The notes beneath the pieces were generated by a model, which saw only the letters and a list, made by a program, of their open reading frames with translations, did not search any database and had not been told where the DNA came from. The position numbers were made by a program, and so were the translations under genes. Below are positions 11,691 through 32,208 of a stretch of 64,000 nucleotides of DNA, piece by piece (positions within the stretch are counted from its first letter, which is position 1; each line of letters begins with the position of its first letter). The DNA comes from Rhizophagus irregularis (lineage: Eukaryota). The stretch lies in contig NC_089432.1 in assembly GCF_026210795.1 (NCBI RefSeq), forward strand, positions 3,844,001 through 3,908,000, given 5' to 3'.

Positions 11691-11903
11691 CCCACAATTT
11701 AATGATAATTTACTGAAAAATTTCTCAACATTTGAATTAGAAATTCTGTAAGAATTCCGCCATTTTGATAAAATTTGCCAAATTGTAAGTCTTCCATTAT
11801 CCCAAAATTGTAACACAATTTACTCCAATTTACTGGGATAATTCTCAATTTGCCAGAAAAATTCCAGGCAAATTTTGCGACAATGACATCTGTTCGACCT
11901 GTG

Positions 11904-14073
11904 GAAAGAAGAATAGAAGAAGGCCCAAGAGCTGACGATTTCATTTTTTTTGTAATACCTTGAGCTAATTCCCAATGATGAAAGAAAATGGAACGGCACA
12001 GCCAGATTTGGACATAAAGGTCAAAATGAAAGTCGTGCAAAGGTGTATCTAAGATAAACCATATGGTAAGTGAAGAAAAATAATTGCCAAAAAATTCTGT
12101 AATAAATATCGGTATAAGTCCTCGTGCGAGTCGCAGGCAGAAAATTGAAGGAGGGTCACAATTCCAACAATTAAGAGCCGTAAATTCAGCAGCAAAAGAG
12201 TCTGGTAAAGGTATTAGAAATGACGCGGAAAGAAAATTATCAAGATAATTAGTCTGAAGAGCCAATAGTAGTGTTTCAAAAGTATTTAAAGGGCTAAATT
12301 CCGGTAAGATATAAGGACAAGTCCACAAGTGGTCTAAAGTCTCAGGAGAAGAGTTACATTGAGAACAAAGCCAATTCGGATTATAAAAATAAGGCTTTCG
12401 TCTCTGAAGAGTTGTAAGCGTCGGAAGCATATCTAATAGTAGTTTGATACGGAAGCCACAAAACTCGGAATGACCATTCCAATGAGAGACGAATTGCTTA
12501 TTGTTATTGAGACAAAATTTGGTGCATGCCCAATCGGTATCAGAAGTTGAAGAATATGAATTAAATCTTGGTAATACAGCAAGAGTTAAAAGACTTTTAG
12601 CGTTAAAAATATTTCTAATAAATTTCCGGATATTCATATCCACAGGTAAGGAATTAAATTATAAAATGCAAGGAGCCAACAATTCCGATGATAGATGAGA
12701 AGAAAGATGTGAGTCGGTATGAGCGGCTTTGGCTAATGCATCCACATGATTATTCAAAGAGTCGTCAGCGTGAGCAGGAACCTTGATCAAGGAAACATCC
12801 AAATTCTTTTGCGACATAATAGTGCGTATGGAAAACCACAAAAGGTGGTTAAATTCTTTAAGCATTCTAGGAATAAAAGGAGCATCCACATACAAAGATC
12901 ATAAAGAAAGTAATTGGGCACAATCAGTAGCGACAGTAATCTTTGAATTCTGAGGGAGGGAGTCCAATCCGTGCAATAGAGCAAAAACTTCTGAACGTAA
13001 AGCAGAAGGAAAAATGAAAGAAATGATATTATAATGGGATTCCAAAATAAATCTATCAGGATCTATAGCGGTCCATGCATAAGTCATCGAAGATATCGGA
13101 TAACTAGAAGGAGGAAGGAAGGAACTATCAATATAAAGTGTAGACACTGAAGAAGGAAGTTATATATCAGAAATCCTAGACACTTGATTATTCATAGGAG
13201 GTAGTTGAACTGAAGCAAAAAGATAAAATAGTAAAAGAGATTTGGCAAAGCTTAACGAGGCAGAAAGCGAGACTAAGCAAGTATCTGCATGTATATAAGT
13301 ATGAGGTCTCGTAGGATAACGGATTAAACTAGATAACGGAACATAAGAAAAGCATCCTTCAGAGGGACATCGTTTAATCAAAGTTTTAGAGGTAGAGGAT
13401 CGCGGAATAGCAGAGATACAACCATGGCATGCAGTAAAATCAGAAAGCAAATCATCAACAGATGACGCAATCCAATGTGAAATAAGAGCTTCATTACGTG
13501 GAGCAGGATAGGTAGTAATCACACGGCCAACAAAAAAGAATTAGTATTACGATTAAAAGAAATAGCCCATTGAGGGTTAAACCAATAATTCTGACTAATA
13601 TCTATAAAAGAAATAGGGGCTACGGTATGAGAAACAGGAATTCTAAATTGTGATAAAATAAACAAAGAAGAAGAATTAGGAATAACAATAAGATTAAATA
13701 AATAATTAAACCAAGCAGGCACAGATCCTTTGTTTGATACTCGTTTAAGAAAGCGTAAATCTTTCCAAGAGAGAAGTCGAGAGCTACACGGTGTAATCAA
13801 TTGAGCAAGATAATGAGTGCAGAAATTCTTCTGAACATTTTTCATGGAAATAAATAAATCTCTTGGTAAAATAGACCGGAGTAGAATCGCCAGACGTAAA
13901 TCTTTCCTTAGAGGTCGGAACAATAAAGACCACGTGATATTTAATCGAGAAGAGAACAATAAAGAATTGAACAAAGAATGTGTTCGCAGGAAAAAGGTAT
14001 GGGACCATGGTTCCAGGTCAATAGTAGAAGGATAGGCATACATCACCGTCCAAAAAACTTTAGAGATAAGTAA
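11904..14073 (-). pseudogene. Non-LTR retrotransposon ORF2, C-terminal part: RNase H and CCHC zinc finger
   Basis: RNase H motifs LYIDSS, SALRSEVFALL, ATDCAQLL, KVPAHADDSLNNHVDALAK, then FRIKLLLDMLPTL...CSQC...ETLDHLWTC. Broken by stops and frameshifts, and cut at both sides by other elements. Confidence 0.85.
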
Positions 14074-14534
14074 GTCATCGGGCTGGTAGTGTGTCTCGCT
14101 AGCGCTCACCCCACCTCGGCCTCACGGTCTCGCAGTACTTACATCCTCCCTTCGTGGGGCGGGAATCCCCATATATGTGTCCCTATCTGTCCCCATATCT
14201 GTCCCATAAATATATAACCAAAAACCAGAAAACAATAGAAAAGGAAGCAAAAAAGAGAGAATAAGAGGGGAAGGACAGATGGGACAAATGGGACAGGCAT
14301 TTCAGAAATATAGGAAAGGACATCTCCCCAGAAAAAGTTTTATTTTTACCCCCCGAAATGCGTCCCATCAGTCCCGTCTGTCCCAAAAAATCTGTCCCAC
14401 ATTTCTTAGCCTCCAATTGGCTTTTCGAACTGATAACAGGTAGGTCAGCAGGTAGGTTTAAGTCCTCGGTTAGCGGGTTGATTACTTTATGTAAAGCGAA
14501 CGCAGTGAGCAAGTAAGCGGATAATCTGCACTTC

Positions 14535-15155
14535 GTCGTCGGGCTGGATGTGGGAGGTGCAAGTACCACCCACCTCTGGGTCTACGACCCGTCGCAGTAC
14601 CTATATGGCCCCTACGGGGCTCAGGAATCCTTATATATCTGCCACAATCTGGGACAATATCTGAAATAAATATATATACCAAATAACTAGAAAACAATAG
14701 AAAAGGAAGCAATAACGGATATAATGAGAGGGTTGTCCCGGATGTGGCAGATGTGGCAGATGTTTCAGAAAAATTATGAGAGGACATCCCCCCAGAAAAA
14801 GTTTTATTTTTACCCCCCCAGATCCGCCACATCCGGAACATCTGGAAAAAGTCAGGATTCCGTCTAATAATCTGTTGGAAGCAGTGAGATAGCAAACCAG
14901 GTAAGTTAGCAGGTAAGCCCCTAGAAGGTCTATAGAGCCAGTAAGGGCAGTGACATTTATTATGTAATATCTATTTACTATAAGCCCATACTCCCCCACC
15001 CCATGTAATATGAAAAATCTTACGTTACACTTATATGTTATATGACCTTTAAATACCCTCCCACCCCCTAAAATATTACGTAATAAATGTCACTGCCCTA
15101 AGACCAACCCCGTCCCACCCCCATCAGAAAAAATAAGTAATTGAACAATGGGTAT
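14535..15155 (+). repeat. Left TIR of element B (~464 bp after removing the MITE)
   Basis: Reverse complement of 28768-29230, differing mostly by transitions. Confidence 0.95.
14945..15098. mobile_element. PIF/Harbinger-type MITE (154 bp) in the left TIR
   Basis: TIR GGGCAGTGACATTTATTAYGTAATAT, TAA on both flanks; the right TIR preserves the empty site (CCAGTAAGACC). Confidence 0.92.
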
Positions 15156-15194
15156 TGAGAATAGAGCATATTCAGATAAGTTTAGAAGACAGTA

Positions 15195-15515
15195 CTAATC
15201 CGTCTTCCTCTTTTTTGCTTCCTTAAGGCATTTATCAATACACTGTTTACACGCATCATCAGAATCTAAGATTTTCTGTCCAAGTTTTTTGCATTGCCGA
15301 TTGTAAGCTGTCTGCTGTCTCTTAGCAGCGATTTCTTTCTTGTTCTCCTTAGTCTTCTTCTTGATCACCCAGTCTACTCCAGTAAAAGTATTCTTATGCA
15401 TACCACAAATTGTGCAGTCACCATGCAGCCGGTAACACCCATTTGTAGTCATATCTTGTATTTCACTAGCAGTCTCAGTTTCCTTCTTGCACTTTAGACA
15501 GTAAAATCGTGTCAT
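15195..15515 (-). CDS. Small Cys4 zinc-ribbon protein (DUF5679-like)
   Basis: YCLKCKKET...NG...GDCTICGMHKNTF pattern; intact 106-aa ORF divergent from the integrase. Confidence 0.65.
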   Translation of the reverse strand: MTRFYCLKCKKETETASEIQDMTTNGCYRLHGDCTICGMHKNTFTGVDWVIKKKTKENKKEIAAKRQQTAYNRQCKKLGQKILDSDDACKQCIDKCLKEAKKRKTD

Positions 15516-15559
15516 CTTGAGATTTGAAGTCTAAAATCTTTCCTTTAATTTGTCGTAAT

Positions 15560-16651
15560 ATGTCACAATTAGAGAATTACTACAAGTACTACAGTCTATC
15601 CAGAGTACCAGCACGAATTTTAAAAGGTGAAGAGCACTACAACCTATACAAAAAGCCCCTAAAGGAAAAATCACCAGAACGCCCAAAGGTAATTGTATGG
15701 AAACCAAATGCAACACATCAGGCAGATCTTGCAGAGATGCCAGTTGACCTCAAAGGATTCCACTATTTCCTCGTAGTGGTAGAAGTCGCGGGAAAGAGAG
15801 TCGATGCAGAACCCTTAAAGGATAAAACTGCAAATAGAGTACTAAACGGGTTTGTTAAAATCTATAGAAGAAATCATATCAAGCCTCCAACACATCGACT
15901 GGAGACAGACTCCGGATCAGAATTCACTAACGACCAGGTACGTGATTTTTTCCTGAACAGCCTAGGGGTAATGATGAGGTTCAGCGAACCAGGAAGGCAT
16001 AAACAGCAATCTTATGCTGAAAGAGCTATCCAAGCCATCCAAGAACCCCTTCTTAAACGAATGGTAGCACAGGAGTTGAAAACTGGGGTGACATCCGTGG
16101 AATGGTCAGAAGATTTCCATAATATAGTGAGTAAAGTAAATGAACTCTGGCAGAGAAATCCCCCAGACATTCTGACAGGGTCACCCAAAGTGTCAAAAAA
16201 GACAGACCTCCTCTCTGAAGGAACACGTGTCAGAGTCAAGTTAGATGAACCTATTTCTGTACTTGGTAACAAACTTCACAGAAAATTCCGTACAGAAGAC
16301 ATAAGATGGAACCTAAACATTCGTGTAATCAAAAAAATGATACTCTCACCTGAACAGCCTTCTACATATCTCCTTAATAGACCACATGGTCGATTAGGTG
16401 TATCCAAATGTGCATATACCCGAAAGGAATTGCAAGTAGTTCCTATTAATGAAAAGCCTCCACCTGACTCTGTGATAAGAGGACAACCTGAAAGATTTGT
16501 ACCTGAGCAGATACTTCGGCATCGCATTAGAAAAGGTCAAGACCAGTATTTGGTTAAGTGGGAGAGATACCCAGATACAGAAGCCACTTGGGAACCTGCT
16601 GACCAGTTGAAGGAAGATGTCCCTGACTTAATTCGCAAATTTTGGGAATAA
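15560..16651 (+). CDS. Retroviral-type (rve) DDE integrase with C-terminal chromodomain
   Basis: HQADL, LETDSGSEF and YAERAIQ supply D, D and E. The C-terminus FVPEQILRHR...YLVKWERYPDTEATWEP is a chromodomain. It is a stand-alone ORF. Confidence 0.93.
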   Translation: MSQLENYYKYYSLSRVPARILKGEEHYNLYKKPLKEKSPERPKVIVWKPNATHQADLAEMPVDLKGFHYFLVVVEVAGKRVDAEPLKDKTANRVLNGFVKIYRRNHIKPPTHRLETDSGSEFTNDQVRDFFLNSLGVMMRFSEPGRHKQQSYAERAIQAIQEPLLKRMVAQELKTGVTSVEWSEDFHNIVSKVNELWQRNPPDILTGSPKVSKKTDLLSEGTRVRVKLDEPISVLGNKLHRKFRTEDIRWNLNIRVIKKMILSPEQPSTYLLNRPHGRLGVSKCAYTRKELQVVPINEKPPPDSVIRGQPERFVPEQILRHRIRKGQDQYLVKWERYPDTEATWEPADQLKEDVPDLIRKFWE

Positions 16652-16676
16652 AAAAAAATAGAAGAATTAAAGGGTC

Positions 16677-17420
16677 TTATTTTTTGTCTCCTCTATTCAC
16701 ATCAGGAACTATCGGAATAAAAACATTCTTCCCATCACAGGTAAAGGCTATATGTTCACGTGATTCATAGACATCATAATTGTAACGTTTCAGACACGTC
16801 CGGCTCAATCCAATTTCCCTATGCTTGTATCCATCTAAAACTGCAAGATCCTCAGTGATAGCATAATCAGGGGTAAGTTTGATTGACACTCCCTTTACCA
16901 TGCCGAATGTCCTACCTGTTCCTAGAGCACCAGATATGTTGTATGTAATACTCTTGTCGATATCCAACCCTAATTCCTCAGCAGCTTCTCTCTGAATAAA
17001 AGACGCATTAGCACAAGTGTCTGCTAAACACTGAATTGCTATCCCATTAACCTCTCCATCCAGTGCTAAAAGATCTTTAGTATTCTCCAAACGAGCTATA
17101 TCAATATCCATAGGATCGTATTCCCTGATATCCTCTTTTTGTTCCTCCTTAGCTAAGTCATCTGAAATCTCTGTGACTTTTCTAGCAGACATCATCTCCT
17201 CCTGAAGAATCTCACGGAGTAATTTCCTAAAGTCTGCAGACCTTAACAGGCTTAATAAGTCATTCTTAGTAACAGCTTTTGCAGGTATAGACTTACTACC
17301 AATAACTTTCACAGGAATCTTAACAGGGGTTGCTTTGCCTTTCAAGGGTACACTAGAAGAGCTAACTGCTGTCTTATTTGGGGACGACTTAAGAAGTTTT
17401 GAGATACTCGAACCTACTTT
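16677..17420 (-). CDS. Retropepsin-like aspartic protease in the -1 frame relative to gag
   Basis: YDPMDID, GEVNG..IQCLADTCANASFIQREAAEELGL, ISGALG, IGLSRTCL. The frame is open from the A9 run at 17418-17426 and has no in-frame ATG before the linker. Confidence 0.85.
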   Translation of the reverse strand, partial: KVGSSISKLLKSSPNKTAVSSSSVPLKGKATPVKIPVKVIGSKSIPAKAVTKNDLLSLLRSADFRKLLREILQEEMMSARKVTEISDDLAKEEQKEDIREYDPMDIDIARLENTKDLLALDGEVNGIAIQCLADTCANASFIQREAAEELGLDIDKSITYNISGALGTGRTFGMVKGVSIKLTPDYAITEDLAVLDGYKHREIGLSRTCLKRYNYDVYESREHIAFTCDGKNVFIPIVPDVNRGDKK

Positions 17421-18844
17421 TTTTTTGACCCAACATGAACCATATAGACATCACCATCTTTTTCTCTCAATTCTACCTTTTCACCAAAACTCACAGTATC
17501 AATGTCCATAGCATCATCATTAAGATCAAGGTTTCTCATTGCTCAGGCCAAATCCAGATCATCACGTCTATCTTTAGCCTTCTGAAGTTGATTTGTAAGT
17601 ATTTTAGACGTCCCACGTTTATATCCCATAATAAGATCAATAGCATTTTGATGATCATCCAAAGTCCACTCAGGAGCATCAGGGTCATCACCAACATCAG
17701 GTTCTACATAACTATCATCTTAATCAGGATCCTGATGATCCTGAATAACACATCTCTGTAGTTTTGGTCGAACAGGTTTAATCTGCTATCTATAGACTGG
17801 TGGATTACGAACTGGCCGAGCCTGTAATTGTTTAAATTGCACCTGAAAATTCTTGGTAAGTTCTTCAGCCTGAGCCTTAAGCAACTCTTGTAATTGTTCT
17901 TGAGTAACCCCAGACGACTTTGATGTCAGTACGACAGGTTCCTGTTTTCCTAATGTAGGTTGAGTTATATCACTGTAATCTGCTCGAAGTCGCCGATTTC
18001 TATCTTGTAACTCCAAGCGCATTTCAGCCCTTCTCCGTTCTAAATTTCTCAGATGTTTAACCAAGTCATCAGGATTAAGATTGTAAAACCTTTCTGCTTC
18101 AAAAATATTATCAGCTGAAAGACCTCTAAAGAACTGGTCGATAATAAGATCATCAGTTAGTCTTAGTAATTTTCCAGCCCTCTTTACAGTTCTATAAAAT
18201 GCATCAACTGGCTCATTTTCCTGGCAAAGACTGTTAAAATGGATACGTTTCTTTTCATCTAAAACAGTTGGAAATTGTGTTCTAAGCCAATAAAGCGCCT
18301 GATTAGGTTTAATACCTGGAAAAACTATAGGATGATTATTATTAACAGCAACACCAGCATCTGCAGTAGCTGGAGCAGCTCTATCTGTAGGACGAGCACC
18401 AGCTCTTTTCCAAGCTTCATCTCCACCCATTAAATCATGAGTAGGAATAAATGCTGCTCTAATAGTTACTAATGCATTAACTGGATATCTTGAATAGATT
18501 TGTGCTTCAGACCCATTTACATAGGTACCTACATTCGGTCCTCCTGCACCTTCTGGTATTACTAATGCTACAAAAGCAGCTAAATTAGCTTCACCAGCTG
18601 AAGTGATACCAGAAAGTTTCCAATTTTTTCCTGTAATTTCTCGATCAAACCATTCAGCTGCTTCACCGGCCATGCAGCTTCTAAGTATACCCATAGCTCT
18701 TTTCCAAGACTCTGGTGACCCTCCAGCAGCATATGGGTTAAGATTAATAGTATCAAGATAACCCATATAAAGCCTAACAAATGTATCAATATCATCAGTA
18801 GCTTTACCCTCAAAAATCGGCAATCCTATCGCAGTGGTAGCCAT
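17414..18844 (-). pseudogene. Ty3/gypsy-like Gag (capsid) protein; tail has three C>T-type stops
   Basis: LPIFEGKATDDIDTF..., LRSCMAGEAAEWF, YWLRTQF, FNSLCQENEPVDAFY (major-homology-region-like) and IIDQFFRGLS. The frame continues through TAG/TAA/TGA to ...AMDID...VGSKKK* at 17414. Confidence 0.82.
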
Positions 18845-19623
18845 ATCGTCTCTAGTGGATTGTTTAAAAGAGGTGGAGGAGGGTTCAATTGTCTAATTCG
18901 AAACCATTGTACCTGAATTCTAAGAGCAGCTATCTGTTGGAAAAGTCTATTCCTAAGTCTCCCTAATGTCTGAATCCCAAAACGCACCCTATTATTAGCA
19001 TGTGCTAGCTATGCATTAACCTGTACAAGTTGCGCATTAGCCAATACAAGTTGTCCTCCAGTCCGAGTAGCCCTCAGCCGCCAATGATTTAGAAGGATAT
19101 TACCACGATTCACAGCATTTTGAGCCTCATTACGATCCATTACTGCTTGAGTATAATCTGCTTGTAATACATTACGTTCATGTCGTGCCTGATTACGTTC
19201 ACCTATAGCCTGTCGACGAAGCTCTACCATAGTATCATAATCTCTTTGCAGGTTATAGTTTTCTTCTATGAAATTATCATTGGCAGCACGTATAATAACT
19301 AATTGACGTTCTAAATTAGTAAACGTTTCATCAAATGCATTTATCTTACCTTGTGCAAAAACTAACAAATCTTTTGTAATACCAAGTTCTTCATGTTTTG
19401 CTTTACAGCAATACATTAATATATTAATAATATGTTTGATTTGATTATTTGCCTCCTGTATCTCTGAATCAACAGTTAAACGACCCCTAGTAGTCAATAA
19501 ATTTGCATGAGCCTTTAGTATTCTAACTAATTCATCATCGTCTTCTTCATTGGCCAAATGTGCAGAAAGCGGTCCAGTAGGTTCTGAAGGAGTATAAACT
19601 GGAATTGGTGTTGATGTCGACAT
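18845..19623 (-). pseudogene. Coiled-coil protein, possibly the frameshifted N-terminal part of Gag
   Basis: Heptad-like ERNQARHERN region. Reads through one TAG (19009) into ...RQLNPPPPLLNNP and overlaps the gag ATG one base out of frame. Confidence 0.55.
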
Positions 19624-19654
19624 AGTATTTAAACTAAGTAAGAATAAAATTCAA

Positions 19655-20878
19655 ATGGATCTTTATGTATACAATTTGGACGAGTACACGACTGACTCAA
19701 GACAAGGCAATGAGTTTGCTCCATCATGGCCCTTTCGATTAGCCGTAGCAGGTAGCTCAGACTCAGGTAAGACAACTATGATCATTAACTTGTTAATGGG
19801 TGACAAGAAGGCAAAGGAGGATGGTAATCGGTATATACTATGTGATGCAGTACTTTTAGTTGGCAGATATCTTGATGAGCTGAAGTGGGCAGTTGTACAT
19901 GATTTTTTCGAAGAGGAGAAGATCCCATTCACTGCAGTAACCCATAGTGAGATTCCAGAGATTGACTCCTTCGACCCTACTCAAGCTACTGTGGTAATCT
20001 TCAAGGATTTGATGGATGCACCTAAAAAAATCCAGGATCTCATCACTGGTTACTTTACACATGGACGACACAAAAATATTTCATATATTTATGTAGCCCA
20101 AAAATTCTTTGCCATTCCTAAGGCTATTCGAGAAAATGTTAACTACATCTCACTGCATGGAGGTCATGGGAGCCTTACAGATACTAAGAGAATCATTTGC
20201 CTATATACAGAAGAATCAGAGTCATTAGCACCAGTAATTGATGATCTTACTTTGCAACGTGAATTTGTAGTGTTTGATCTTAGATGGTCTAAAAGTGATC
20301 CACTGTCCATTCGAGTAAGATGAGATACTAGTCTCAGTTCGATCACAAAGCAATCTCAGTTCAATCCTAGTTCAATCTCAGTTCAATCTCAGTTTAATCC
20401 AAATTTGAACCCAGTTCGATCTCAGTCTGAACCCAGTTCAATCACAGTTCGATTTAAGTTTAGTCCCTATGGTCAGAAAGCTGTATCTGAAGCAAAAAAA
20501 GGTGGACACTTGATTGAATTTGCTTGGGTATTTCCATCCCCTAAAGAGCGTCAACATTTACTTGTACTTGGTGTCTTAGCTAAGAATACAGATACCTGGA
20601 TTAAATTTGTCTTTCGGGAAGCTTATGGACTCTCTGGTAAGACCCTAGGAGCTGACTTTCAGGACTTCTTAGCAAAAGTACAGGGTAGGATTGCAAAGAC
20701 TGAAACTCTGAAAACTGAGAATGTGAAGGAGTTATTCTCCCAATATGAAGCCCTGAAGTCTAGTCGCCCTCTGGATAATAAAAAAATAATAGAAGGTATT
20801 GAAGTCCTTTTACAGATCTTTTCTAAGAGCCACATGGACCGTCGAGCATTACAAGTAGGGATTAATAGTATCTTGTGA
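19655..20878 (+). pseudogene. A32/FtsK-HerA-like (genome-packaging type) ATPase with one premature TGA
   Basis: Walker A LAVAGSSDSGKT, Walker B VVIF(K)DL, FTHGRHKNISYIYVAQ...IPKAIREN. ORFs 19655-20323 and 20405-20878 are in the same frame, separated only by a TGA. Confidence 0.85.
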
Positions 20879-21422
20879 GAATATCAAGTAATTCGTCTGC
20901 AGAAGCTCTAAGAATCATAGCACTTTTTTTACAGCCTTCAAAGTCAATCCTTAACATCTTAGCCTTCAACCCTATTGCTCTTAAGGCACGAGAAGCAAAG
21001 TTCTTAATCATTGAATTACTTATATGATTTACATAGTTCTCATAGAATGTATTGAAAGGCTCGTCAATACCATCTGGATATGTATCCCTTAGAAATTGAT
21101 ATAAGGCAATTTCTCCACTATCACAACCTATGGCTATAAGCTGTTCAAGTAGCCACTTCCTAATATCTTCATATGGCTCTCCATCCATAATTTTCATATC
21201 CAGTCTTTGTGTAAACAATTGTGTAAAGTCCACATTACTTGCCCGACGAATGATATGAACTAACTTATCCCTAGCAAGTCCCAAGGCTTGTAGAGGGTCA
21301 TTCTTATCACTAATCTTCTTTATAATCTGTCTGTATAATACACTGGATAATCCTCTATGTGCTGTTTTTAGAGTGATTACTCCATAGTTTTGGCACTGGT
21401 TTATTACGATTGATGTTGACAT
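20862..21422 (-). CDS. Hypothetical protein, 186 aa (element B)
   Basis: Intact ATG ORF in the compact gene cluster; no recognised motif. Confidence 0.6.
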   Translation of the reverse strand: MSTSIVINQCQNYGVITLKTAHRGLSSVLYRQIIKKISDKNDPLQALGLARDKLVHIIRRASNVDFTQLFTQRLDMKIMDGEPYEDIRKWLLEQLIAIGCDSGEIALYQFLRDTYPDGIDEPFNTFYENYVNHISNSMIKNFASRALRAIGLKAKMLRIDFEGCKKSAMILRASADELLDILTRYY

Positions 21423-21467
21423 GGCTATCTTTCTTTATGTAAAAAAGAATTATTCAAAATTAAGTAA

Positions 21468-21971
21468 CTATTCGGAGCAGTCTTTACACAACTTGTCCGT
21501 TAAGTCACTTGGGCTTACAGGCATGAGACATTCCCTACACAACTCAATATTAAGCTCTGCAAGTCTTGGGGTATGGTCCTCCAAAGTTCGTGGATGACCG
21601 GAAGGACTAGAGGAAGGTGTCCCGTTAGTCGTATCTTGCTGTAAGATAAAATCATCATATTCATCTTGGTCAGCCTGAATAGCGGTCCTGATTTGTTGTA
21701 TATCATTGAAAGTTAACCGCTGCCCATCAAGATTTTCCTCATTATAGCGTGTTTCATTGATAATTTCCTCTATAAGCGCCTCTTCTTCATAATGGACAAG
21801 GTAGTAATCCTCAACTACCTCATAGTCACTCTCAATCAGTCTATGATATGTTTTAGTACCACGTCGAACATAACGTCCTGTATCTGTATTTAAATATACA
21901 GGTTGCTCTTCAGGTGGAGGTGCAGTTTGTCTACGGACAAGCCTTCCATCAATATAATCATGGGATTCCAT
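21468..21971 (-). CDS. Hypothetical acidic protein with C-terminal CxxC...CxxC (element B)
   Basis: LNTDTGRYVRRGTKTY and LCRECL...LCKDC; a TATA-like TATATATA lies upstream (~22032-22040). Confidence 0.65.
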   Translation of the reverse strand: MESHDYIDGRLVRRQTAPPPEEQPVYLNTDTGRYVRRGTKTYHRLIESDYEVVEDYYLVHYEEEALIEEIINETRYNEENLDGQRLTFNDIQQIRTAIQADQDEYDDFILQQDTTNGTPSSSPSGHPRTLEDHTPRLAELNIELCRECLMPVSPSDLTDKLCKDCSE

Positions 21972-22112
21972 AACTATTCGATTAAAGGTATCTCCACCGA
22001 TAATAATTGGATGTCCAGTTATAGGGTTAGCTATATATATAAGGGTAAGACATGTCTTTTTTTCTGTATGTATCTACATACCTAATAGTTTTCTTCAATT
22101 TTTAATAACCAA

Positions 22113-22272
22113 GTGACATGGTCATCAGTCCTTATCAAAAAATACAAGAATACCTGATGATGAGGTTACATGGTCATCAGTCCTTATCAAAAATGCAAGG
22201 ATACCTGATGATAAGGTTACATGGTCATCAATCCTTGTCGAAAAAATGCAAGGATACCTGATAAATAAGTTA
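22113..22272. repeat. Three ~51-bp direct repeats in the internal non-coding region of element B
   Basis: GTTACATGGTCATCAGTCCTTATCAAAAATGCAAGGATACCTGATGATAAG repeated three times with variants. Confidence 0.85.
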
Positions 22273-22550
22273 CTGGGTTATTGGCCTAGAATGTATTCAT
22301 GGAAAAACTATGGATTATATTACAGAAAATGTGAACGGAGTTCATGTCACGTGATTTAATGCGGTACGTAGATCATTTCCTTTTTGGGCGATACCCGTTC
22401 CACAAAAAATCGATTTGGTAAGAATGCGTTTGGAACCTTGTGTAACATAAATTTCTTTTTTCGGTAATTCGGGATTACGCGGTAATGCCGGCCGGATCTA
22501 AAAAAAATGACTCTGCAGGGTAATTCCTACGAAAGTCAAGTACAAAATGC

Positions 22551-22967
22551 TTACTCCTGTTGAATCCAATCATTCCACTTCCAGTCCAATCTCCAAGGAT
22601 CACCTCCCCATCTATGTTCACTTAATGCATGCTCTATGGTTTCCCTTTCCTGGGGGTTCACAACCATTCCATTCCTAAGCATTTTCTCCATAATATAAAG
22701 CTGATCCTCGGTGAGGCGGTCTATCCATCTTTTATAGAAGTCGTTTACATCTTCAAATGATATCCAGTCAATATTCCCTTTTTCAAACGGCTTTCCAAGA
22801 GCTTGGACATGCCCAATTGTAGTAGCGTAATTTTTCCATCCCTTATATGCTTCTTGACGAACCTCCTGCCACCACACACTATCTACTTTACTCGCTGCAA
22901 TAAGGTTAGTATCTGGGATCTTTGCAACAATGCATTTGACTATTTCTACTGGTAATCGGTCCAACAT
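22551..22967 (-). CDS. Small F-box-like protein
   Basis: N-terminus MLDRLPVEIVKCIVAKIP...LIAASKVDSVW matches the F-box pattern. Confidence 0.75.
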   Translation of the reverse strand: MLDRLPVEIVKCIVAKIPDTNLIAASKVDSVWWQEVRQEAYKGWKNYATTIGHVQALGKPFEKGNIDWISFEDVNDFYKRWIDRLTEDQLYIMEKMLRNGMVVNPQERETIEHALSEHRWGGDPWRLDWKWNDWIQQE

Positions 22968-23039
22968 GATGTTATGTTACTTATACTATAGCCATCTTCA
23001 ATTACTGTATACCCATTACAAATGGATAAAAAATATAAA

Positions 23040-23531
23040 CTAAATTCGTACAGGAGCCGCTTATGCAAGAAGTTCTGCTAAGGTTTTCTCAGCCTCATTC
23101 ATAGTGACAGCTCACTTTGGGGGACCTGTTAATGAGTCCTTAGTTACATTATAATACAACTCGAAGAGGGCCTCAAGTTTGTCTAAAAGAGCTTGTTTAT
23201 TCTTGTATGATTCACGAATCTTTGCTATTTTAGCAGTATATGCTGCATTATCTGGAAAGAGTTTTCTGGCCACGAACTTCACATATTATACAGGAGACTT
23301 TGCTGTCTGAATTCTCTTGATATACTTCACATGATCCTGGACAAGGTAGCTGGTTTTGCTAAACCCAGATACTAATGCGACTACTATAGTGTCTTTTAAT
23401 GCATGGATAATCTTGAAGACAGTTTCATCAGAGACAATGGTGAACTGATTGCATGATGCATCATAAATAACTTCATCACTAATGCTGTCAGTGCAGTTAA
23501 TAATACTTGCTAATTCAGTATATGTTGACAT
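23040..23531 (-). pseudogene. Hypothetical protein, interrupted by stops (element B)
   Basis: The 81-aa ORF continues in frame past the TAA at 23286 (YVKFVARKLFPDN...). Confidence 0.4.
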
Positions 23532-23645
23532 GATTCCTTATACTTTTTTGTACTTTGTAATAAATAGGAATCTTCAAATTGACTTTACATTCAAGCAAGA
23601 AAAAAATATATATACCTACTGTAAATCCAACTGCATTCTTAGCAA

Positions 23646-25525
23646 TCATGTCCAGATAACCTTGTTTGCATTTTTCACATGGCAGTATCCTGCGGTTTCA
23701 AACTTGAGAGCTTTCAATGCTTTGGATGCATTTTCTGGACAAGTGATAAGTGTAGGACTACTCAGCTGTTCCTCTAGAATAAATCCATCTGTATGGATAC
23801 GTCGTACTTTATCCTTATATAGTTCTAATAACTCTGAAGTCATCTTCCGTCCATGTGTTAATAAGAATGGAGCAATCCTAGGATACTCACCCTTGAAGGG
23901 ACTACCTGGGTTTGTGAATTGGAATCGCCACTGGTCAGATCCTACTGGTATGATGGAGTCAAGTGTGTGGCCTTCTGGAAACTTGAATGGATCTGTTTGA
24001 TCTGTGGTGAGTGTCTTGTAATTGCATTTCCTCTGGTAGAGTGCTCCCCATAATGTATTGAGAACTCTCTTTGCAACACGACCGGCCACGCCACCCTGGT
24101 TCTTTATATTGAAGAAAAAGTGAACATACTCACCAAATATTACAGTCCCAGGAATTCTTGCTTCTCTGTCATATATCAAGGCATTTGGCTTTCCATCCTG
24201 GATTAACTGTATATCAAGACCAAGTTTCTTTGCTCGTTGTAAGTCAATGAATGTATAGACTCCCCTCTTATTCTGTCGGAAGAGAATGTCATTACCACTT
24301 ACCTTGCCCTTGGGCGCTCCCTGAGAGCTAGCACGAAATAATCCATACAAGGCATAACCTCTGTGGTCTACAAAGTCTTTGAGTATTTGAAACTTACCTT
24401 GTTGGATTGGAAAGTTAGCATTTGATTGCTGAATACTTGGATACAAACTTGTCACGTCGTATTGTCTTCCATAGCCCTTCCATTCATTATCTGCCCAGAT
24501 AAGACCTCCCATCATTGCATCACTTATCCACTCTGCTTCGACTGGATCAAGAGGATCATTAGCTGGAACTTCTACACTAAACCGTTCAAAAAGCCAGAGA
24601 GCAGTTCTCTTGTACGACCAGTTGTGGTAAGATAAGTCGATTCCTAGACCGAACTTCTTTGTAGCCTGTAGAAAGGAATCCCACTCTTCATGAATCCTCT
24701 GGTATGTTTCCTCAAGTGTTTCATATATTCCAGTTTTACGATTCTTCTCAATAGGGATGAAGGAGTAACTATCAGAGTTCTTACCTTTCTGAAACTGTCC
24801 AACTGTAAGAGACTTAACTGTCTTACCATTGTATATTGTTACTACATTATTAACCCCATCTTCACGATAAACAAAGGGAGACTTTTGTTTTCTATCTAAT
24901 TTACTAGGGTGAAGTCTTCCAGGATTCAGTGCAAGAGAGTAGTGGCCTTCAGACAGGATGAAGGTTGCACGTCTGTCAGATTTGCTCTTGGAAATTCGAG
25001 TGGAATCCCTACAATATTAAGTGCAAGACTTTCTGCAAGTTGTTCAACCTTATCCATATATGAGACTGGAACTGGAGCATCACGATTGAGACCTAATGCC
25101 TTTTTGATATATTCAGGCTTTTTTATAGTCTCGGGTATTTTAGAGAATATACCATAGATATGCTTCAGGCATTCATACAGGCAATCATTTAGCTCCCCAT
25201 TGCATCCCCCTGCAACCAGTGGAGCATCTCTCACATAAATTATGAATCGTTCAAAGTAATCAGGATCTGCATCATCTGGTAGTTGTGCTTCATCATAGTG
25301 GTCCAAGAGTGAGAAGAGGCTGGCTGGTTGGTTTCCTGATGTCCATCCACCGAGTTTCCAGTTTTCATAGGGAAGTAGGATCTGGAACTTTCTATCTGGA
25401 AATCGCGCCTGGAGAGTCTGACCGAGTCTGGCGATAGCTCCTCTGGAAAAGCGGGCACTGGAATACTGAAGTTCCTTGATGTCAGGTCGTGTTGGTAAAG
25501 TGCGGGCGATTCTTGAGTATTGCAT
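23646..25525 (-). pseudogene. Compact family-B DNA polymerase (protein-primed-like), frameshifted
   Basis: MMGG, motif A RQYDVTSLYPS, motif B KRVLNTLWGAL, motif C variant RIHTDGF. The N-terminal piece (24926-25525, with NDCLYECL) is joined via frameshifts. Confidence 0.85.
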
Positions 25526-25609
25526 TTTTATGTATATGACTTGTCTTTAACTATAAATAATATCTTTCTATATATATACGAAAAAAAAAGAAATAATCTC
25601 AAATAGCGC

Positions 25610-28159
25610 TTACAATATGTCATTGATAGCGCCCTCAGTATCCTTTTCATTCCAGTCATCGATGATTCCATTGGCGGCCTCCCATTCATGTTCCATATCA
25701 GTTTTTGGACGTTCCTCTGGGATTTCTCGTGCCTTACCTTTATTTATCTTCATAGTTTCATAACCAGAGGTAGTAGGGATAATCTCAGCATCACGATCCT
25801 CCTTGTATACTCTTATTAGATTTGCGAGTTCTTTACGGCTAGGTGTTTTAGGTGAGTTCCCATTATATTCGATCCAGTCCTTGAAGCGGTCTACTACTTC
25901 CCTAAGGTAGTACTGGTACTCGTCCTCAATACGTGTTGTGGGACATTCCTCTACTTCAAACACGAGTATTTTCCAGTCATACTCGTCTGACACGTCTTGG
26001 TACTTAGCCCATAAATCCTTACCTGTATTGTAGAGATCATTGAAGACCTGGTCCTTTGAATTCTTGACCCATGGCTTACGATCCCATCAGTGTCTTTCAT
26101 GCCAAGCCCAGTGTGCTTGAGTACCTTCCTTTGGTTCAGGGTCCCGGTCAACTTCTAGTTCTGTATCGAGTTCTGGGATAGGTTGCTCTTCAGGAGCTGG
26201 TTCTGAATCAGGCTTAGTGACAGATGCAGAAGATTCTGCGGGAGACTCGGATTGTTGTTCAGGAGCTGGGTTCACAGTTGTAAAATCTGAGTCAGATAGC
26301 AAGTCATCTAAAACGTCGTAGTCATCATCAGCTTTAAATGCAGGTTTCTCAGCAGACAGCTCATTTTCTTGATCAGGTTCCTCATCAGATAGATAACAGT
26401 CCGAGAAGCTATCTATAGGTTCATTAGTATCTGACTCTATAGGAGCTGGAGATTCCTCAGGAATAGGATCCTCATTGATGACAGGTGCGGGTTTTGCCTT
26501 CAAGCAATCGGGCTTAAGTGGTACTGGTGGTGAAGTCTTTTTGGAAACTGGTTTCTCTTCAGTAGGCTTCTTCTCGACAGGAGCGGGTTTTTCCTCAGCA
26601 GGTTTCTCAACAACTGGCTCCACTTCCTCTTGATCTACTTGCGATTTACTAGCTGGATTATATATATTTGCCAAGAACTTTACCAAGGCATTTGGATCAG
26701 ATGCGGGCTTCTCAGGAGTTTCTACATTTATTCCTTTTATATTGATTTCATCTGTTTCGTGGATCCATTTTTTGGTGAGAAACTTCTTGTAAAGGTCCTC
26801 CCTGGATATGCTATAAACTCGTGGTGTTGCCTTACCTACACGTATTTTTCTGCTATTTATACCCAACTCATTTGATAGGATTCTAGAAGCGTTTATCTTT
26901 GATAGGGGTGTAATGCAATGAGTTTCACAGTATGAAGTATATACCCTATAAAATTCTTAAACAGGTAGATCGGTTATATGATTTTTTACTATGAGGTAAG
27001 TGTCCTTTATGAATTGAAATAGGGGTGGAAGAGTCGATATGATGTGATCCTGCTTAGATGTTGTCATAGGTGGTGGATTCCCATTGAAGTCTGGATAAGC
27101 ATCTGCAATGGCTCTCAAGTAAGCATAGAATGCCTCACTGGCGCCTGGGTATTTCATAGCGTTACTGAGTTTCTTAAAGTAGTTGAGGTCTCCCTTGCGG
27201 GATGGTGATACATCCAAGAACACTGTGCACCTATCGTCATTCTCCACTCTGAGAGCATTTTCATTAGTGAATACAATGGTGGATATAAAGTTTTTGTAAT
27301 GTGTTGGCATCTTGTATTTTTCATGGATTTCCATTATGTCACCTGTTACCTTATCCTTCAACGATCAATACAGATTATTCCACTGGCTTTTTTCTGTAGG
27401 CATTTCCTCGAGGAGGAGAAGAACCTTACCTTGTAATTGCCCATTAAAACTTCCAAGAATCGTTTGAGGATCGCTGGTCTTATAAACAAGTTGAGTACCT
27501 AAGACACTACGTTGAATGAAATCTGTTATAATACTCTTACCCCAACCCTGTCCAGATTTCAGGTAGAGAATACATTTTCCTTCCAGCTGCCACACCGGCC
27601 AACCACTTTATGATATACTCAGTAAGATTCCAATCGCCTGAACACCAGATATCCTGAATGTGAAAGAAGATAAATTTAACCGCGAGGTGGGTTGTAGATT
27701 CAAAGTGGATATCGAACGCAGGATATGGAGGAATCCTGGAAAGATATTGAGATAAAGTTGGCCACCTAGTTTAAAGATACGGGATTTTTGAGGGTCACAG
27801 GTAGCTACACATACAGTACTATATTCGATCATAAACCATTTGTTGATATTAAATTCAACCTTTTGTGAAGGACCCTGTTCAGATTGTGTGTAAAAGACTT
27901 TGGTAATTGGACGGATAAGTTTATTAATATTTTTATCAGGGATGTGCTCAAGGTTTTTGATTTCTGATCGCCACATGAAGACTCCATGCGGGTTGGAACA
28001 GGGGATAAAGTAACTGCAAAGATAACCTTTAGCTTGATTGAGATCCCTCATATTCTTTGCAGCGTTAATGAGCCGTTTAAGCTCATCAATACTAAAAGCC
28101 TTCTTTTGTTCACCGAACTTGGAGATAACTTGAGCTTGAGTGCTAGTTTGGGCAGTCAT
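25610..28159 (-). pseudogene. D5-like superfamily 3 helicase with Pro/Glu-rich tail, fragmented
   Basis: Walker A LKSGQGWGKS, FNGQLQGKVLLLLEE (Walker B), IVFTNENALRVENDDR (motif C and Arg finger); five ORF pieces in register. Confidence 0.88.
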
Positions 28160-28378
28160 TTTTTGTTCTATCAAATCGAGTACTAATTTATAGTTACCTA
28201 ATCTTCAATTGCCGAATATTTTTTCCAAAGATCTGCACTCCTACCAGGTTACCCTCCTGTAGTCCTATGGTCCTGCGATTCTGCGGTCCTCCGGTTATAT
28301 CTGGTTATCTTCTAGGGGTAAAAAAAAACTATAAACCACGAACCTTTACGACTGCTCTAAATCTTCCCTTCCCCTTTT

Positions 28379-28738
28379 TCAAACTACATATATCTGAAAT
28401 CCAAACCGCTCAAGAGCTCCTTTTACTATAGTTAGCTTTTTTCTAGTGTCCGTTAACTCTTTATAAGCCTTTTGATATGCCTCCCATTCAAGTTCATGGA
28501 GGATACCCTCCTCCTCCAATGATTGGCCAAGAGCATCATTTGCTTTTTCCTTCTTTTCTACTGCCCTGTCGTATGCCTCCTCGGCTTTTTTATGCCGCTT
28601 CCAGAGTACTCGTTCAGCTTCGGCTCTCCAGATTGGGCTGACTTCTAGAAGATGTGGCCCGAAATTGCTACTTGGAATGCATTCCAGGATATGGCCTACA
28701 AGTTCGGGGATTACTGATACTACGTGCGGGGTATACAT
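28379..28738 (-). CDS. Small F-box-like / coiled-coil protein next to the right TIR
   Basis: IPELVGHILECIP...LLEVSPIWRAEA resembles an F-box. Confidence 0.55.
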   Translation of the reverse strand: MYTPHVVSVIPELVGHILECIPSSNFGPHLLEVSPIWRAEAERVLWKRHKKAEEAYDRAVEKKEKANDALGQSLEEEGILHELEWEAYQKAYKELTDTRKKLTIVKGALERFGFQIYVV

Positions 28739-28767
28739 GTTATCTGTCCTTATAGATTACTTATGGT

Positions 28768-29230
28768 ATACCCATTGTTCAATTACTTATTTTTTCTGAT
28801 GGGGGTGGGATGGGGTTGGTCTTACTGGCTCTATAGTCCTTCTAGGGGCTTACCTGCTAACTTACCTGGTTTGCTATCTCACTGCTCCTAACAGGTTATT
28901 AGACGGAATCCTGACTTGTTCCAGATGTTCCGGATGTGGCGGATCTGGGGGGTAAAAATAAAACTTTTTCTGGGGGGATGTCCTCTCATAATTTTTCTGA
29001 AACATCTGCCACATCTGCCACATCTGGGACAACCCTCTCATTATATCCGTTATTGCTTCCTTTTCTATTGTTTTCTAGTTATTTGGTATATATATTTGTT
29101 CCAGATGTTGTCCCAGATTGTGGCGGATATATGGGGATTCCTGAGCCCCGTAGGGGCCATATAGGTACTGCGACGGGTCGTAGACCCGGAGGTGGGTGGT
29201 GCTTGCACCTTCCACATCCAGCCTGACAAT
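28768..29230 (-). repeat. Right TIR of element B (463 bp)
   Basis: Ends in CCAGCCTGACAAT versus the expected CCAGCCCGACGAC (three transitions), followed by the TSD ACTTC. Confidence 0.95.
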
Positions 29231-29414
29231 ACTTCTAATATACTCAGGTAAACATATTACTCTGACACGCAAGTATGATTCTGATGACTAATCCCGTCCC
29301 ACCCCTAGAAGATAATTAGGTAGGACCGAAGGAGCACGGATCTTTGGAAAAATATATTCGGCAATTGAAGTTTAGGTAACTATAAATTAGATCCCGATTC
29401 AACAGAATGAAAAA

Positions 29415-31835
29415 ATGACCACTCAAGCTCAAGTTATCCCCAAATTCGGTGAACAAACGAAAGCCTTCAGTATTGATGAGCTTAAATGGCTTATTGTTGC
29501 TGCTAAGAGTATGAGTGACCTCGATCAAGCCAAGAGGTATCTTTGCAGTTATTTCATTCCCTATGCAGATCCTCATGGAGTTTTCTGGTGGGACCTGGAT
29601 AGTAAAAGTTTGAAACACATTATTGACAAAAATATTGGTAAACTTATCCGTCCAATCACGAAGGCATTCTACACACAACCTGAACAAGGACCCTCTTAAA
29701 AGACCGAGTTCAACATCTACAAGTGGTTTATGGTCGAGAATACTGATGTATGTAATGCAACCTGTGATCCTCATAAACAGCGAATCTTCAGATCCTTAAC
29801 TGGCCAACTCTATCTAAATATCTTCCTGGGATTCCTTCACGTCTTGCATCTGATATCCACCTTTGAGTCTACAATTCACCTCGCGGTTAAATTTATCTTC
29901 TCTCACATTCAGGATATCTGGTGTTCGGGTGATTGGAATCTCACTGAGTATATCATCAAGTGGTTGGCCGGTGTATCTGCTGGAAGGAAGATGTACTCGA
30001 TTCTCTACCTAAAATCTGGACAGGGTTGGGGCAAAGGTATTATAATAGATTTCATTTAGCGCAGCGTCCTAGGCACTCAACTTGTTTATAAGACCAGCGA
30101 TCCTCAGACGATTCTTGGAAGTTTTAATGGGCAATTACAGGGTAAGGTCCTTCTTCTTCTCGAGGAAATGCCCACAGAAAAAAGCCAGTGGAATAATCTG
30201 TATCGCTTTTTGAAGGATAAAGTAACGAGTAACATAATGGAAATCCATGAAAAATACAAGACGCCAACACATTACAAGAACTTTATGTTCACCATCGTCC
30301 TAACCAACGAAAATGCTCTCAGAGTGGAGAATGACGATAGGCACACAGTGTTCTTAGATGTGTCACCATCCCGCAAGGGAGACCTCAACTACTTCAAAAA
30401 ACTCAGTGACGCTATGAAATACCCAGGCGCCAGTGAGGCATTCTATGCTTACTTGAGAGCCATCGCAGACACTTACCTAGACTTCAATGGGAATCTGCCA
30501 CCCATGACAACATCCAAACAGGAACATATCATCTCAACTCTTCCACCGCTATTCCAATTTATAAAGGACACATACCTCGTAATGAAAAATTATATGACCG
30601 ACCTACCTGTTCAAGAATTTTATAGGGTATATACTTCATATTGCGAAACTCATTGCATTTCACCCCTATCAAAGATAAATGCTTCTAGAATCCTATCAAA
30701 TGAGTTAAATATAAATAGTGATCAAATGTATATTGATAAGAAGCACACTCAAGTTTACAGCATATCCAGGGAGGACCTCTACAAGAAATTCCTCAGCAAA
30801 AACTGGATCCACAAAACAGACGAGATAGACATAGAAGGAATAGATGTAGATACTCCCGAGAAGCCCGCATTAGACCCCAATGCCTTGGATAAGTTCTTGG
30901 CAAATATATATAATCCAGCTAACAATTCACAAGATGTACAAGAAAAACCTGCTGAGAAAAAACTCGCTAAGAAAAAACCCGTACCTGTCAAGGAAAAACC
31001 CGCACCTGTAATTCGCAAGATGCCTCCACCGCTTTCACCCAAGCCTGATCACTTAAAAGAACGTCCACAAGAGTTAAGGGAAGAAAAACCGTCTGCCCCC
31101 GAGCCAGATAACTATGACGTCTTAGATGACTTGTTATCAGACTTAGATTCTACAACCGTGGACCCAGTTCTTGAGCAACAACCCGCAGAATCTTCCACAA
31201 AATCCGAATCCCTTGCAGATTCTAAATTTTCTACAGAACCTGTAGTAGTACTGGCTCCCAAAGAGCAACTTATTCCAGAACCTGACACAGAACCAGAAGT
31301 CGACCGGGATCCTGAACTAAAGGAAGGTACTCGAGCACACTGGACTTGGCAAAAAAGGCACCGATGGGATCGCAAGCCGTGGGTTAAAAATTCAAAGGAC
31401 CAGGCCTTCGATGATCTCTAAAATACAGGTAAGGAATTATGGGCCAAGTACCAAGACGCGTCAGATGAATACGACTGGAAAATACTTGCGTTTGAAGTAG
31501 AGGAATGTCCTACAACGCGTATTGAGGACAAGTACCAGTACTACCTTAGGGAAGTAGTAGACTGCTTTAAGGATTGGATTGAATATAATGGATACTTATC
31601 TAAAACACCTAGCCGTAAAGAATTCGCGGATTTAATAAGATAATCGTAATGCCAAGATTATCCCCACCCCCTTTGGTTATGAAACTATGAGGGCAGATAA
31701 AGGTAAAGCGCGAGAGATCCCAAAGAACGTCTAAAAACTGATATGGAACGCCAGTGGGAAGCCGCCAATGGAATCATCGATGACTGGGATGAAGAGAATC
31801 TTGATCGTGTATGCAGCAAGATTGACTCCTTTTAA
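29415..31835 (+). pseudogene. D5-like SF3 helicase of element A
   Basis: Close paralogue of 25610-28159 (LKSGQGWGKG, MPTEKSQWNNLY, TNENALRVENDDR), with in-frame stops. Confidence 0.88.
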
Positions 31836-31918
31836 TAAGATAAGCACTTCTTAGTTATCTTATATTTTTTGTATAAAAAACCTATATTACAACTGAACAC
31901 AATTCATAAATACATTAA

Positions 31919-32208
31919 ATGGTTTATTCAGAGATTGTCCGTGCTTTACCTATAAGACTGGATATCAAAGAATTACAGTATTCAGGCGCAAGATTTTCTA
32001 GAGGATCAATAGTAAGACTTGGACAGCGACTCCAATCCCGGTATTCGACACATAAATTCCAGATCCTGCTTCCCTATGAAAACTGGAAACCCAGTGGATG
32101 GACATCAGAAAATGAACCGGTAAGTCTCTTTTCACTGTTAGACCATTATGATGAAGCACAACTACCGGACGACGCAGACCCCGATTATTTCGAACGATTT
32201 ATAATTTA
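31919..32208 (+). pseudogene. 5' fragment of the PolB gene of element A
   Basis: Matches the N-terminus of 24926-25525 up to YFERFIIY, then switches to unrelated AT-rich DNA. Confidence 0.85.

Follow-up and report, generated by a model that had tools for sequence, protein, structure and literature searches.

What encloses the DNA of the Polintons that reside in arbuscular mycorrhizal (AM) fungi? Mavericks are expanded in Glomerales (PMC11952901), and the Polinton of Glomus intraradices (Rhizophagus irregularis) has been described, in the accessible text of that study, without a major capsid protein (MCP) (PMC7805220). Here we analyzed a window of 64,000 nucleotides of the R. irregularis genome (assembly GCF_026210795.1, contig NC_089432.1, positions 3,844,001 to 3,908,000 of the forward strand), in which one such element occupies positions 14535-29230 (window coordinates are used throughout). 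The element is a real, old and conserved chimera that joins a replicon of the Polinton/mavirus type to a capsid-protease module of retroelement type, composed of Gag and a retropepsin (hereafter gag-pro). Gag is probably the missing capsid of glomeromycete Polintons and offers an answer to the gap stated for the Glomus/Rhizophagus Polinton (PMC7805220). A preliminary description of the locus, made from the sequence alone, had interpreted it as a Polinton whose morphogenesis module was replaced by a retroelement capsid and protease; this interpretation is supported by the relatives of the element, by the predicted fold of Gag and by the lack of space for a double-jelly-roll (DJR) capsid. The genes surrounding gag-pro are the following, where loci labeled L are relatives from metagenomes.

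15195..15515, minus strand: small Cys-rich DUF5679 protein (Pfam 1.3e-14), at the same position in L011 and L014
15560..16651, plus strand: DDE integrase with a C-terminal chromodomain, open frame (Pfam)
16677..17440, minus strand: retropepsin with D-T/S-C/G/A motif and N-terminal linker, encoded at -1 relative to the Gag frame (Pfam; best PDB match Ty3 Gag-Pol, E 4e-4)
17411..17430, minus strand: A-run (A AAA AAA/G) shortly preceding the Gag stop, a likely site of -1 frameshift or slippage (7/7 sequences)
17411..18844, minus strand: Gag of ~477 codons, interrupted in this copy by three in-frame stops (fold, profiles)
18826..19623, minus strand: ORF-A, coiled-coil-like, its end overlapping the Gag start, interrupted once by an in-frame stop in this copy (coiled-coil Pfam matches on the L011 counterpart)
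19655..20878, plus strand: A32-like FtsK/HerA ATPase, 31 bp from ORF-A in head-to-head orientation (Pfam, motifs)

Relatives were sought with an alignment of the ATPase, which kept their choice free of Gag, and at least 25 loci of soil-type metagenomes were obtained (50-93% identity). Among the 25 listed, 3 begin within the ATPase and 9 stop short of the Gag position. An open reading frame (ORF) on the opposite strand stands head-to-head with the ATPase in all 22 loci that do not begin within it (5 by tblastn, 17 by ORF listing), and Gag is found at the same position in 13/13 loci that are long enough, corresponding to 11 independent cases because L007/L009 and L011/L017 are near-identical pairs. 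The protease is present in each of the six loci that extend past Gag, and the convergent integrase follows it in three, two of which reach DUF5679; the contigs of L006 and L022 end shortly past the protease. L016 carries the ATPase, small ORFs and an intact family-B DNA polymerase (PolB) in the order of the window. In every pair compared the non-synonymous divergence was lower than the synonymous one, with pN/pS of 0.46-0.84 for Gag, 0.35-0.73 for the protease, 0.29-0.40 for the integrase and 0.12-0.41 for the ATPase, crude figures since synonymous sites are near saturation, and with Gag the least constrained. The ATPases of the window, L020 and L022 are 84-93% identical and their Gags 35-51%; such diverged Gags beside near-identical ATPases point to exchange of a cassette, in a slot that appears always to be filled by a Gag.

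A chance insertion of a long terminal repeat (LTR) retrotransposon in one Polinton copy, of which gag-pro would be the remnant, finds some support in the protease, nearest to that of Ty3, and in a joint between 17527 and 19658 (runs X3 and X6) that would drop Gag and ORF-A. This joint has a short side of 21-23 letters and is likely a ligation product, given the GATC at both of its ends, as in many joints of the same two runs; among the best 15 of 133 and the best 15 of 70 joints, none removes the whole gag-pro block. The junction of integrase and protease is spanned by diverged contigs (X15 record 1, with 112 differences, and X7 records 25 and 26). No LTR-like repeat was detected around gag-pro (best 15 bp, E 0.4), a six-frame scan returned neither a YxDD-type reverse transcriptase (RT) motif nor a CCHC knuckle, and RT domains of Pfam number 0 among 109 clusters of Gag-Pro homologues, so that the element is devoid of the RT/RNase H and of the LTRs of Ty3/gypsy elements. 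The base composition of gag-pro is that of the remainder of the element (GC 0.385 vs 0.398; CpG observed/expected 0.52 vs 0.50). An LTR remnant is thus extremely improbable; the conserved position in relatives appears to refute it, unless one misassembly is common to the metagenome contigs. As far as these sequences tell, gag-pro is a conserved component of the element and not a nested fragment. The preliminary description had reported no RT/RNase H and no LTR by gag-pro, in agreement with our motif and repeat scans, and had considered its reading lost if gag-pro were missing from most copies or nested as an LTR fragment; the constant position of Gag and protease in relatives found through the ATPase, with no LTR, speaks for it, and the dN/dS comparison that it had proposed gave pN<pS in all Gag and protease pairs (with near-saturated pS).

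Because the Pfam match of Gag to Retrotrans_gag (E=0.02) is under the cut-off, its identity was assigned from structure. The reading frame was followed to 17411 across the three in-frame stops, and the AlphaFold model, built from 60 homologues (mean pLDDT 85.9), predicts a capsid (CA) N-terminal domain (NTD) with an insertion of ~105 aa, a CA C-terminal domain (CTD) and a helical and acidic tail, without zinc knuckle. In a VIA structure search of 48,161 chains, the top 36 rows were all retroviral, retrotransposon or domesticated capsids, several of them aligning both CA domains; HERV-K Gag (Z 10.0, rmsd 7.6, 185 aligned across residues 1-283) and the CTD of Rous sarcoma virus (Z 9.6, rmsd 1.9, 70 residues aligned) are examples, and it weighs against the assignment that, for helical folds, Z values of 8-10 are by themselves not decisive. 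The best Foldseek match was the CA-CTD of PEG10 (E 3e-3, with none <1e-3), the best PDB match of the Gag profile was again the PEG10 capsid C-terminal domain (E 0.001), and the language-model neighbours were Retrotrans_gag clusters (0.93). Profile, language model, Foldseek and VIA all point to a Gag capsid fold, a trait of Ty3/gypsy elements; each signal is moderate and all are concordant, suggesting that Gag adopts the two-domain fold of retroelement capsids. The NTD insertion (residues ~74-178, window 18310-18620) is confident in the model, varies among lineages and is a candidate surface domain.

The 109 Gag-Pro clusters (617-920 aa) are all named Rhizophagus irregularis, and their Pfam domains are the aspartic protease alone or none; further relatives occur in Entrophospora and Diversispora. 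A zinc knuckle is found in 0/109 of the close Gag homologues and in 5/148 representatives, among the more distant ones. These five, P0310, P0326, P0339, P0367 and P0370, are glomeromycete-type Gags with a CCHC knuckle, and in P0310, P0326 and P0339 ORF-A and Gag appear as one frame. They could mark the donor of the module.

There is no space in the element for a DJR capsid: the largest gap without an assigned gene is 477 bp, and all ORF regions above ~200 aa are assigned to other families, leaving the DJR MCP of canonical Polintons without a counterpart. The five ORFs without family measure 119-201 aa and are small in relatives too, where seen; they have no match to capsid, penton or Ulp1 protease in Pfam or PHROGs, a comparison made with sequence profiles, and could still include a small penton or cysteine protease. 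A Capsid_NCLDV match (E 0.26) in the helicase of a neighboring element was rejected as noise. One may suppose that a jelly-roll capsid is concealed in these small ORFs, whose comparison was limited to profiles, or is provided in trans by another virus. Part of a 2026 study bears on this: of 167 complete pMVRE group-1 elements, about a hundred of them from R. clarus, its table gives an MCP in 25, retropepsin_like with DNA_pol_B_2 in 56 and Retrotrans_gag in 7 (PMC13215967), the last number being as low as expected for a domain that scores below the Pfam cut-off. The MCPs in those 25 elements favor a concealed capsid; the size of the gaps, the constant smallness of the ORFs, the lack of capsid matches and the missing MCP of the G. 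intraradices Polinton (PMC7805220) argue against it, and we regard it as very unlikely. The preliminary description had likewise seen no DJR capsid. The fold comparison that it had called for is answered in part, with the CA fold of Gag found and the absence of a DJR supported by the coding map and the Pfam and PHROG profiles.

The relation between Gag and the protease is also that of a retroelement, with a retropepsin downstream of Gag as in Ty3/gypsy. The closest PDB matches of the protease profile are Ty3 Gag-Pol and Ddi1 (E 4e-4 each), and the catalytic Asp is present in 6/6 sequences. In all seven sequences, an A AAA AAA/G run lies 7-13 nt before the Gag stop, with the protease frame at -1; elsewhere in these genes the run occurs at 0.0016 per codon, which makes the chance 0.8% per sequence. 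A Lys run closes the Gag C-terminus in 11/12 full-length representatives. The A-run is likely a -1 frameshift or slippage site that would separate Gag from Gag-Pro, as judged from the nucleotides. In retroviruses an occasional -1 shift yields Gag-Pro, according to the part of PMC9307154 available, and the conservation of the switch suggests that the structural protein is made in larger amounts than the enzyme that matures it. The end of ORF-A lies a few codons beyond the Gag ATG in 12/14 sequences; a heptamer, UUUAAAC, located upstream of the Gag start was discarded as a signal, being in frame in this copy only (1/14). The NCBI gene models, which join ORF-A, Gag and protease by introns, were taken to be artefacts of gene prediction at the overlap and at the frameshift.

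The remaining features of the element are the following.

14530..14534, plus strand: left target duplication ACTTC (empty-site joint in X2 and X4)
14535..15155, no strand: left terminal inverted repeat (TIR) of ~463 bp, interrupted by a ~153-bp insert resembling a miniature inverted-repeat transposable element (MITE) at ~14946-15098 (repeat alignment, joints)
20862..21422, minus strand: conserved 186-aa protein, no assigned family (homologues in 8 loci)
21468..22073, minus strand: conserved protein of ~170-200 aa, weak 2C_adapt motif (Pfam, relatives)
22551..22967, minus strand: F-box-like small protein (weak Pfam, E 0.06)
23112..23531, minus strand: conserved ~140-aa protein, broken by a stop in this copy (L016 homologue)
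23646..25525, minus strand: protein-primed PolB (pPolB), ~625 aa, with terminal protein (TP)-like N-terminus, vOTU with Cys/His and phi29-like polymerase (fold of the intact L016 relative)
25610..28159, minus strand: superfamily 3 (SF3) helicase, D5-like, DUF5906, with long acidic tail, stops and a frameshift (Pfam)
28379..28738, minus strand: 119-aa ORF, no assigned family (ORF listing)
28768..29230, no strand: right TIR (repeat alignment)
29231..29235, plus strand: right target duplication ACTTC (flank comparison, empty-site joint)

The Pfam matches of the main genes are rve (3.9e-9) and Chromo (1.8e-17) for the integrase, Asp_protease_2 (8.4e-8), Pox_A32 (1.4e-9), DNA_pol_B_2 (3e-7) and, for the helicase, DUF5906 (2.4e-7). 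As in Polintons, the RVE integrase has an rve domain in an open frame, and the A32 packaging ATPase combines the Pox_A32 match with conserved motifs; its Walker A Lys-Thr is kept in 25/25 sequences spanning it, and its profile has no match in the PDB. The fold of PolB was taken from the intact L016 relative, 58% identical to the polymerase part in the window (pLDDT 86.6). It matches phi29 polymerase (E 1.6e-11, Z 20.6), with 347/571 phi29 residues aligned from phi29 residue 5; this alignment and the shortness of the protein (~625 aa) were considered in regard to a mavirus-like reduction of the exonuclease. Residues 106-207 have an OTU fold (Z 5.5-6.9), the Cys and His of which are kept in 47/48 PolB homologues, and the terminal-protein match is weak (Z 4.5). 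The relative therefore shows the protein-primed PolB with TP and vOTU of Polintons, with that weak TP match; Polintons and mavirus share this TP-vOTU-polymerase layout, mavirus having an SF3 helicase as well (accessible text of PMC11161782). The DUF5906 SF3 helicase, the TIRs and the domain set are those of pMVRE group 1. In L007, the region downstream of the ATPase (3155-3685) contains the end of another family-B polymerase, with a YTDTDS motif, which suggests that polymerases were exchanged within the family. Cargo genes that are F-box-like recur in family members at differing places (window 22551-22967; L016:1043-1570; L011:6798-7349).

From these genes the following cycle can be proposed. 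The element would be excised or copied out as linear DNA, which pPolB would replicate, primed by its terminal protein; the SF3 helicase would unwind it and vOTU would cut the terminal protein off. A divergent promoter may drive the ATPase one way and ORF-A, Gag and protease the other way; ribosomes would mostly stop at the end of Gag, and a minority would shift -1, or the transcript would slip, to yield Gag-Pro. A shell assembled from Gag would be matured by the protease, the ATPase would load it with the ~14-kb DNA, and the chromodomain integrase might finally insert the DNA into heterochromatin-like repeats. That Gag is the capsid of the element seems to us reasonably likely. The wider proposal, an endogenous family of AM fungal viruses with a double-stranded DNA (dsDNA) genome, protein-primed DNA-to-DNA replication, a Gag capsid, a frameshift-expressed retropepsin, an A32 motor and no reverse transcription, joining two realms, strikes us as evenly balanced between right and wrong.

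Gag might instead form an intracellular shell or condensate, similar to Arc or PEG10, that protects complexes engaged in replication or integration or transports the RNA of the element, with no pumping of DNA by the ATPase. PEG10, Arc and PNMA2 are indeed among the nearest folds, relatives are missing from collections derived from virus particles (IMG/VR), and a tight motor-capsid interface might not tolerate the swaps of Gag beside near-identical ATPases. Such a shell fits poorly with the conserved motifs of the ATPase, with its head-to-head arrangement with the ORF-A/Gag block in 22/22 listed loci and with the lack of a zinc knuckle for RNA, and we consider it unlikely, though worth bearing in mind. 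A capsid-less transposon or plasmid with Gag-Pro as cargo, for example a dominant-negative restriction factor against LTR retrotransposons, is a still less probable alternative. The fungal group-1 lineage is taken as devoid of structural proteins and as 'likely plasmids' in the available part of PMC13215967, and a Ty1 Gag-derived restriction factor is among the fold matches (Drt2, Z 5.8). A cargo would hardly be expected to keep both CA domains, an intact protease and the -1 switch across lineages with near-saturated synonymous sites, or to be accompanied by a packaging-type ATPase with nothing else to package into. Our gag-pro finding contradicts the plasmid reading of the lineage.

Several points weigh against a Gag particle filled with the DNA of the element. 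Particle formation is inferred from genes and predicted folds. To our knowledge, an FtsK-type motor has not been reported to fill a Gag shell, and a knuckle-free Gag with an acidic tail offers no evident means of engaging DNA. IMG/VR returned no relative with the ATPase, the ATPase alignment, PolB, the Gag alignment or the PolB alignment as queries; GTDB scans returned none either, and taxonomy look-ups gave no named Rhizophagus DNA virus among the names listed. Sampling through the ATPase probes the presence of Gag given the ATPase, not given PolB; the longest relative is 8 kb, with none spanning the whole element, and in L013 an ORF other than the integrase follows the protease. The distances among Gags are only weakly concordant with those among ATPases (Mantel rho 0.28, p 0.028, 13 sequences). 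No stem-loop was found after the A-run (z -0.7 to 0.8), which makes transcript slippage as plausible as ribosomal frameshifting. In the accessible part of PMC13215967, the chromodomain co-occurs with Pox_A32 in 6 group-1 elements vs 37 with retropepsin_like, and many elements may therefore have no detectable ATPase. The copy in the window has disrupted frames for Gag, ORF-A, ATPase, PolB and helicase, and in the 24% read of one raw poly(A) run its gag-pro reaches an RNA depth of 0-0.6 per bin and strand.

The copy at 14535-29230 is a decayed, fossil member of an otherwise conserved family. Its ATPase, a single gene of ~408 codons, contains one stop and an altered residue in Walker B, PolB is frameshifted near 25007, CpG is depleted across the element (observed/expected 0.50), and differences from other copies are mostly transitions. 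The contig depth in run X4 is similar for gag-pro (3510-5675) and for the rest (3461-10902), although it is not a copy number.

TIRs, target duplication and empty site concur that 14535-29230 is a single insertion of 14.7 kb. The TIRs total ~463 bp, in a main stretch of 408 bp (14538-14945 / 28821-29227, 95.8% identity) and a second one of 57 bp (15099-15155 / 28768-28824, 98% identity), the outermost three bases differing between the ends. The target duplication is ACTTC, 5 bp, at 14530-14534 and 29231-29235, and the empty site is seen in public contigs as a joint between 14529 and 29231 with 5 letters shared, in 2/4 runs (X2 and X4). Long TIRs with a short target duplication are typical of Polintons, the canonical duplication being 6 bp. 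For Polinton-like viruses, 5-7 bp are given in the available text of PMC7805220. The single unit with its TIRs and ACTTC duplication, the gene list (integrase-chromodomain, A32-like ATPase, PolB, SF3 helicase) and the 25 bp between the stops of the convergent integrase and protease genes are all as the preliminary description had stated. The ~153-bp insert in the left TIR (~14946-15098) has inverted ends of 27 bp and an apparent TAA duplication, and is missing from other copies (joint between 14941 and 15099, 3/4 runs); RNA reads heaped on it have loose ends, indicating that the insert is multicopy elsewhere.

The element (GC ~0.40, vs 0.29 in 33000-64000) was inserted in the TIR of a sister element, 14130-14369 being 76% identical to its own TIR. 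The sister is truncated (14130-14534, 29231-32300) and retains a TIR, the SF3 helicase, an inverted copy of the main one (77-83%), and the start of PolB. Beside the element, 11699-14050 holds minus-strand ORF pieces resembling the decayed end of a non-LTR retrotransposon, with a Cys-rich motif. Tandem arrays of a 52-bp repeat occupy 7338-8885 and 10981-11630, and mutually inverted arrays of ~120-150-bp units with short palindromes, at 1-1120 and 9130-10460, are possibly the ends of a ~10-kb DNA transposon.

The preliminary description knew of no account of this gene combination, and we found no text analyzing a Gag-bearing Polinton in open PMC and bioRxiv text, a scope that leaves aside subscription papers, Repbase reports and figures; the novelty is nevertheless smaller than it had assumed: the lineage is catalogued already, and its gene labels have probably been drawn once before. 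The legend of Fig. 5 in Starrett et al. 2021 (PMC8502044) labels Matrix/Capsid/NC/Pro, as retroviral Gag and retropepsin, in elements with S3H and an adintovirus-like PolB, as does the preprint of that study, and the legend of Fig. 3 names a Rhizophagus PolB; section 3.4 and the Discussion do not treat a Gag-bearing element, its conservation, frameshift or mechanism. The Fig. 5 element may well belong to the same family. The words 'gag' and 'protease' appear 0 times in the main text of PMC13215967. In the accessible text of a 2026 preprint (10.64898/2026.06.19.733378), Glomus and Rhizophagus A32 ATPases group with Polintons and Gag is unmentioned, and the corresponding portions of PMC11952901, PMC11296320, PMC4028283, PMC5751038, PMC10680173, 10.1101/2025.06.16.659975 and 10.64898/2026.10.13.758929 have nothing on the combination.

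Should particles form, DNA that had never been reverse-transcribed would be enclosed in a Gag shell, for which we know of no example, and a DNA-packaging motor would work on a retroviral lattice. The family would then provide plant symbionts of global importance with a candidate dsDNA virus and a vehicle by which genes could move, and would represent a Gag container of natural origin that holds ~14 kb of DNA; particles, once shown, would make it a new kind of virus.

Compared by description, the element shares host group, pPolB, RVE integrase and ATPase with the Polinton/Maverick of G. intraradices, and its capsid slot holds Gag and retropepsin where that one was described without a detectable MCP. 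The fungal lineage of pMVRE group 1, from Rhizophagus, Glomus and Diversispora, many members of which are 13-15 kb with TIRs, has DUF5679, DUF5906, chromodomain, rve and retropepsin domains in common with it, in the available part of the catalogue (PMC13215967). Mavirus-type virophages and canonical Polintons share the TP-vOTU-polymerase pPolB, SF3 helicase, chromodomain RVE integrase, A32 ATPase and TIRs (PMC11161782, in part); in contrast to them, the element has Gag and an aspartic protease instead of a DJR MCP, and penton and Ulp1 protease went undetected by profiles. With Ty3/gypsy (Metaviridae) and retroviruses it shares the two-domain CA fold, the retropepsin, the -1 slippery site before the protease and the chromodomain integrase, whereas it has no RT, RNase H, LTR or zinc knuckle, its integrase is separate and oppositely oriented, and its CA-NTD carries the ~105-aa insertion. 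Bidnaviruses provide the precedent for exchange of a capsid, theirs being derived from parvoviruses. In these viruses a pPolB element had its jelly-roll MCP replaced by an unrelated capsid, as summarized in the accessible text of PMC11161782; unlike the element described here, they have a single-stranded DNA genome and no integrase.

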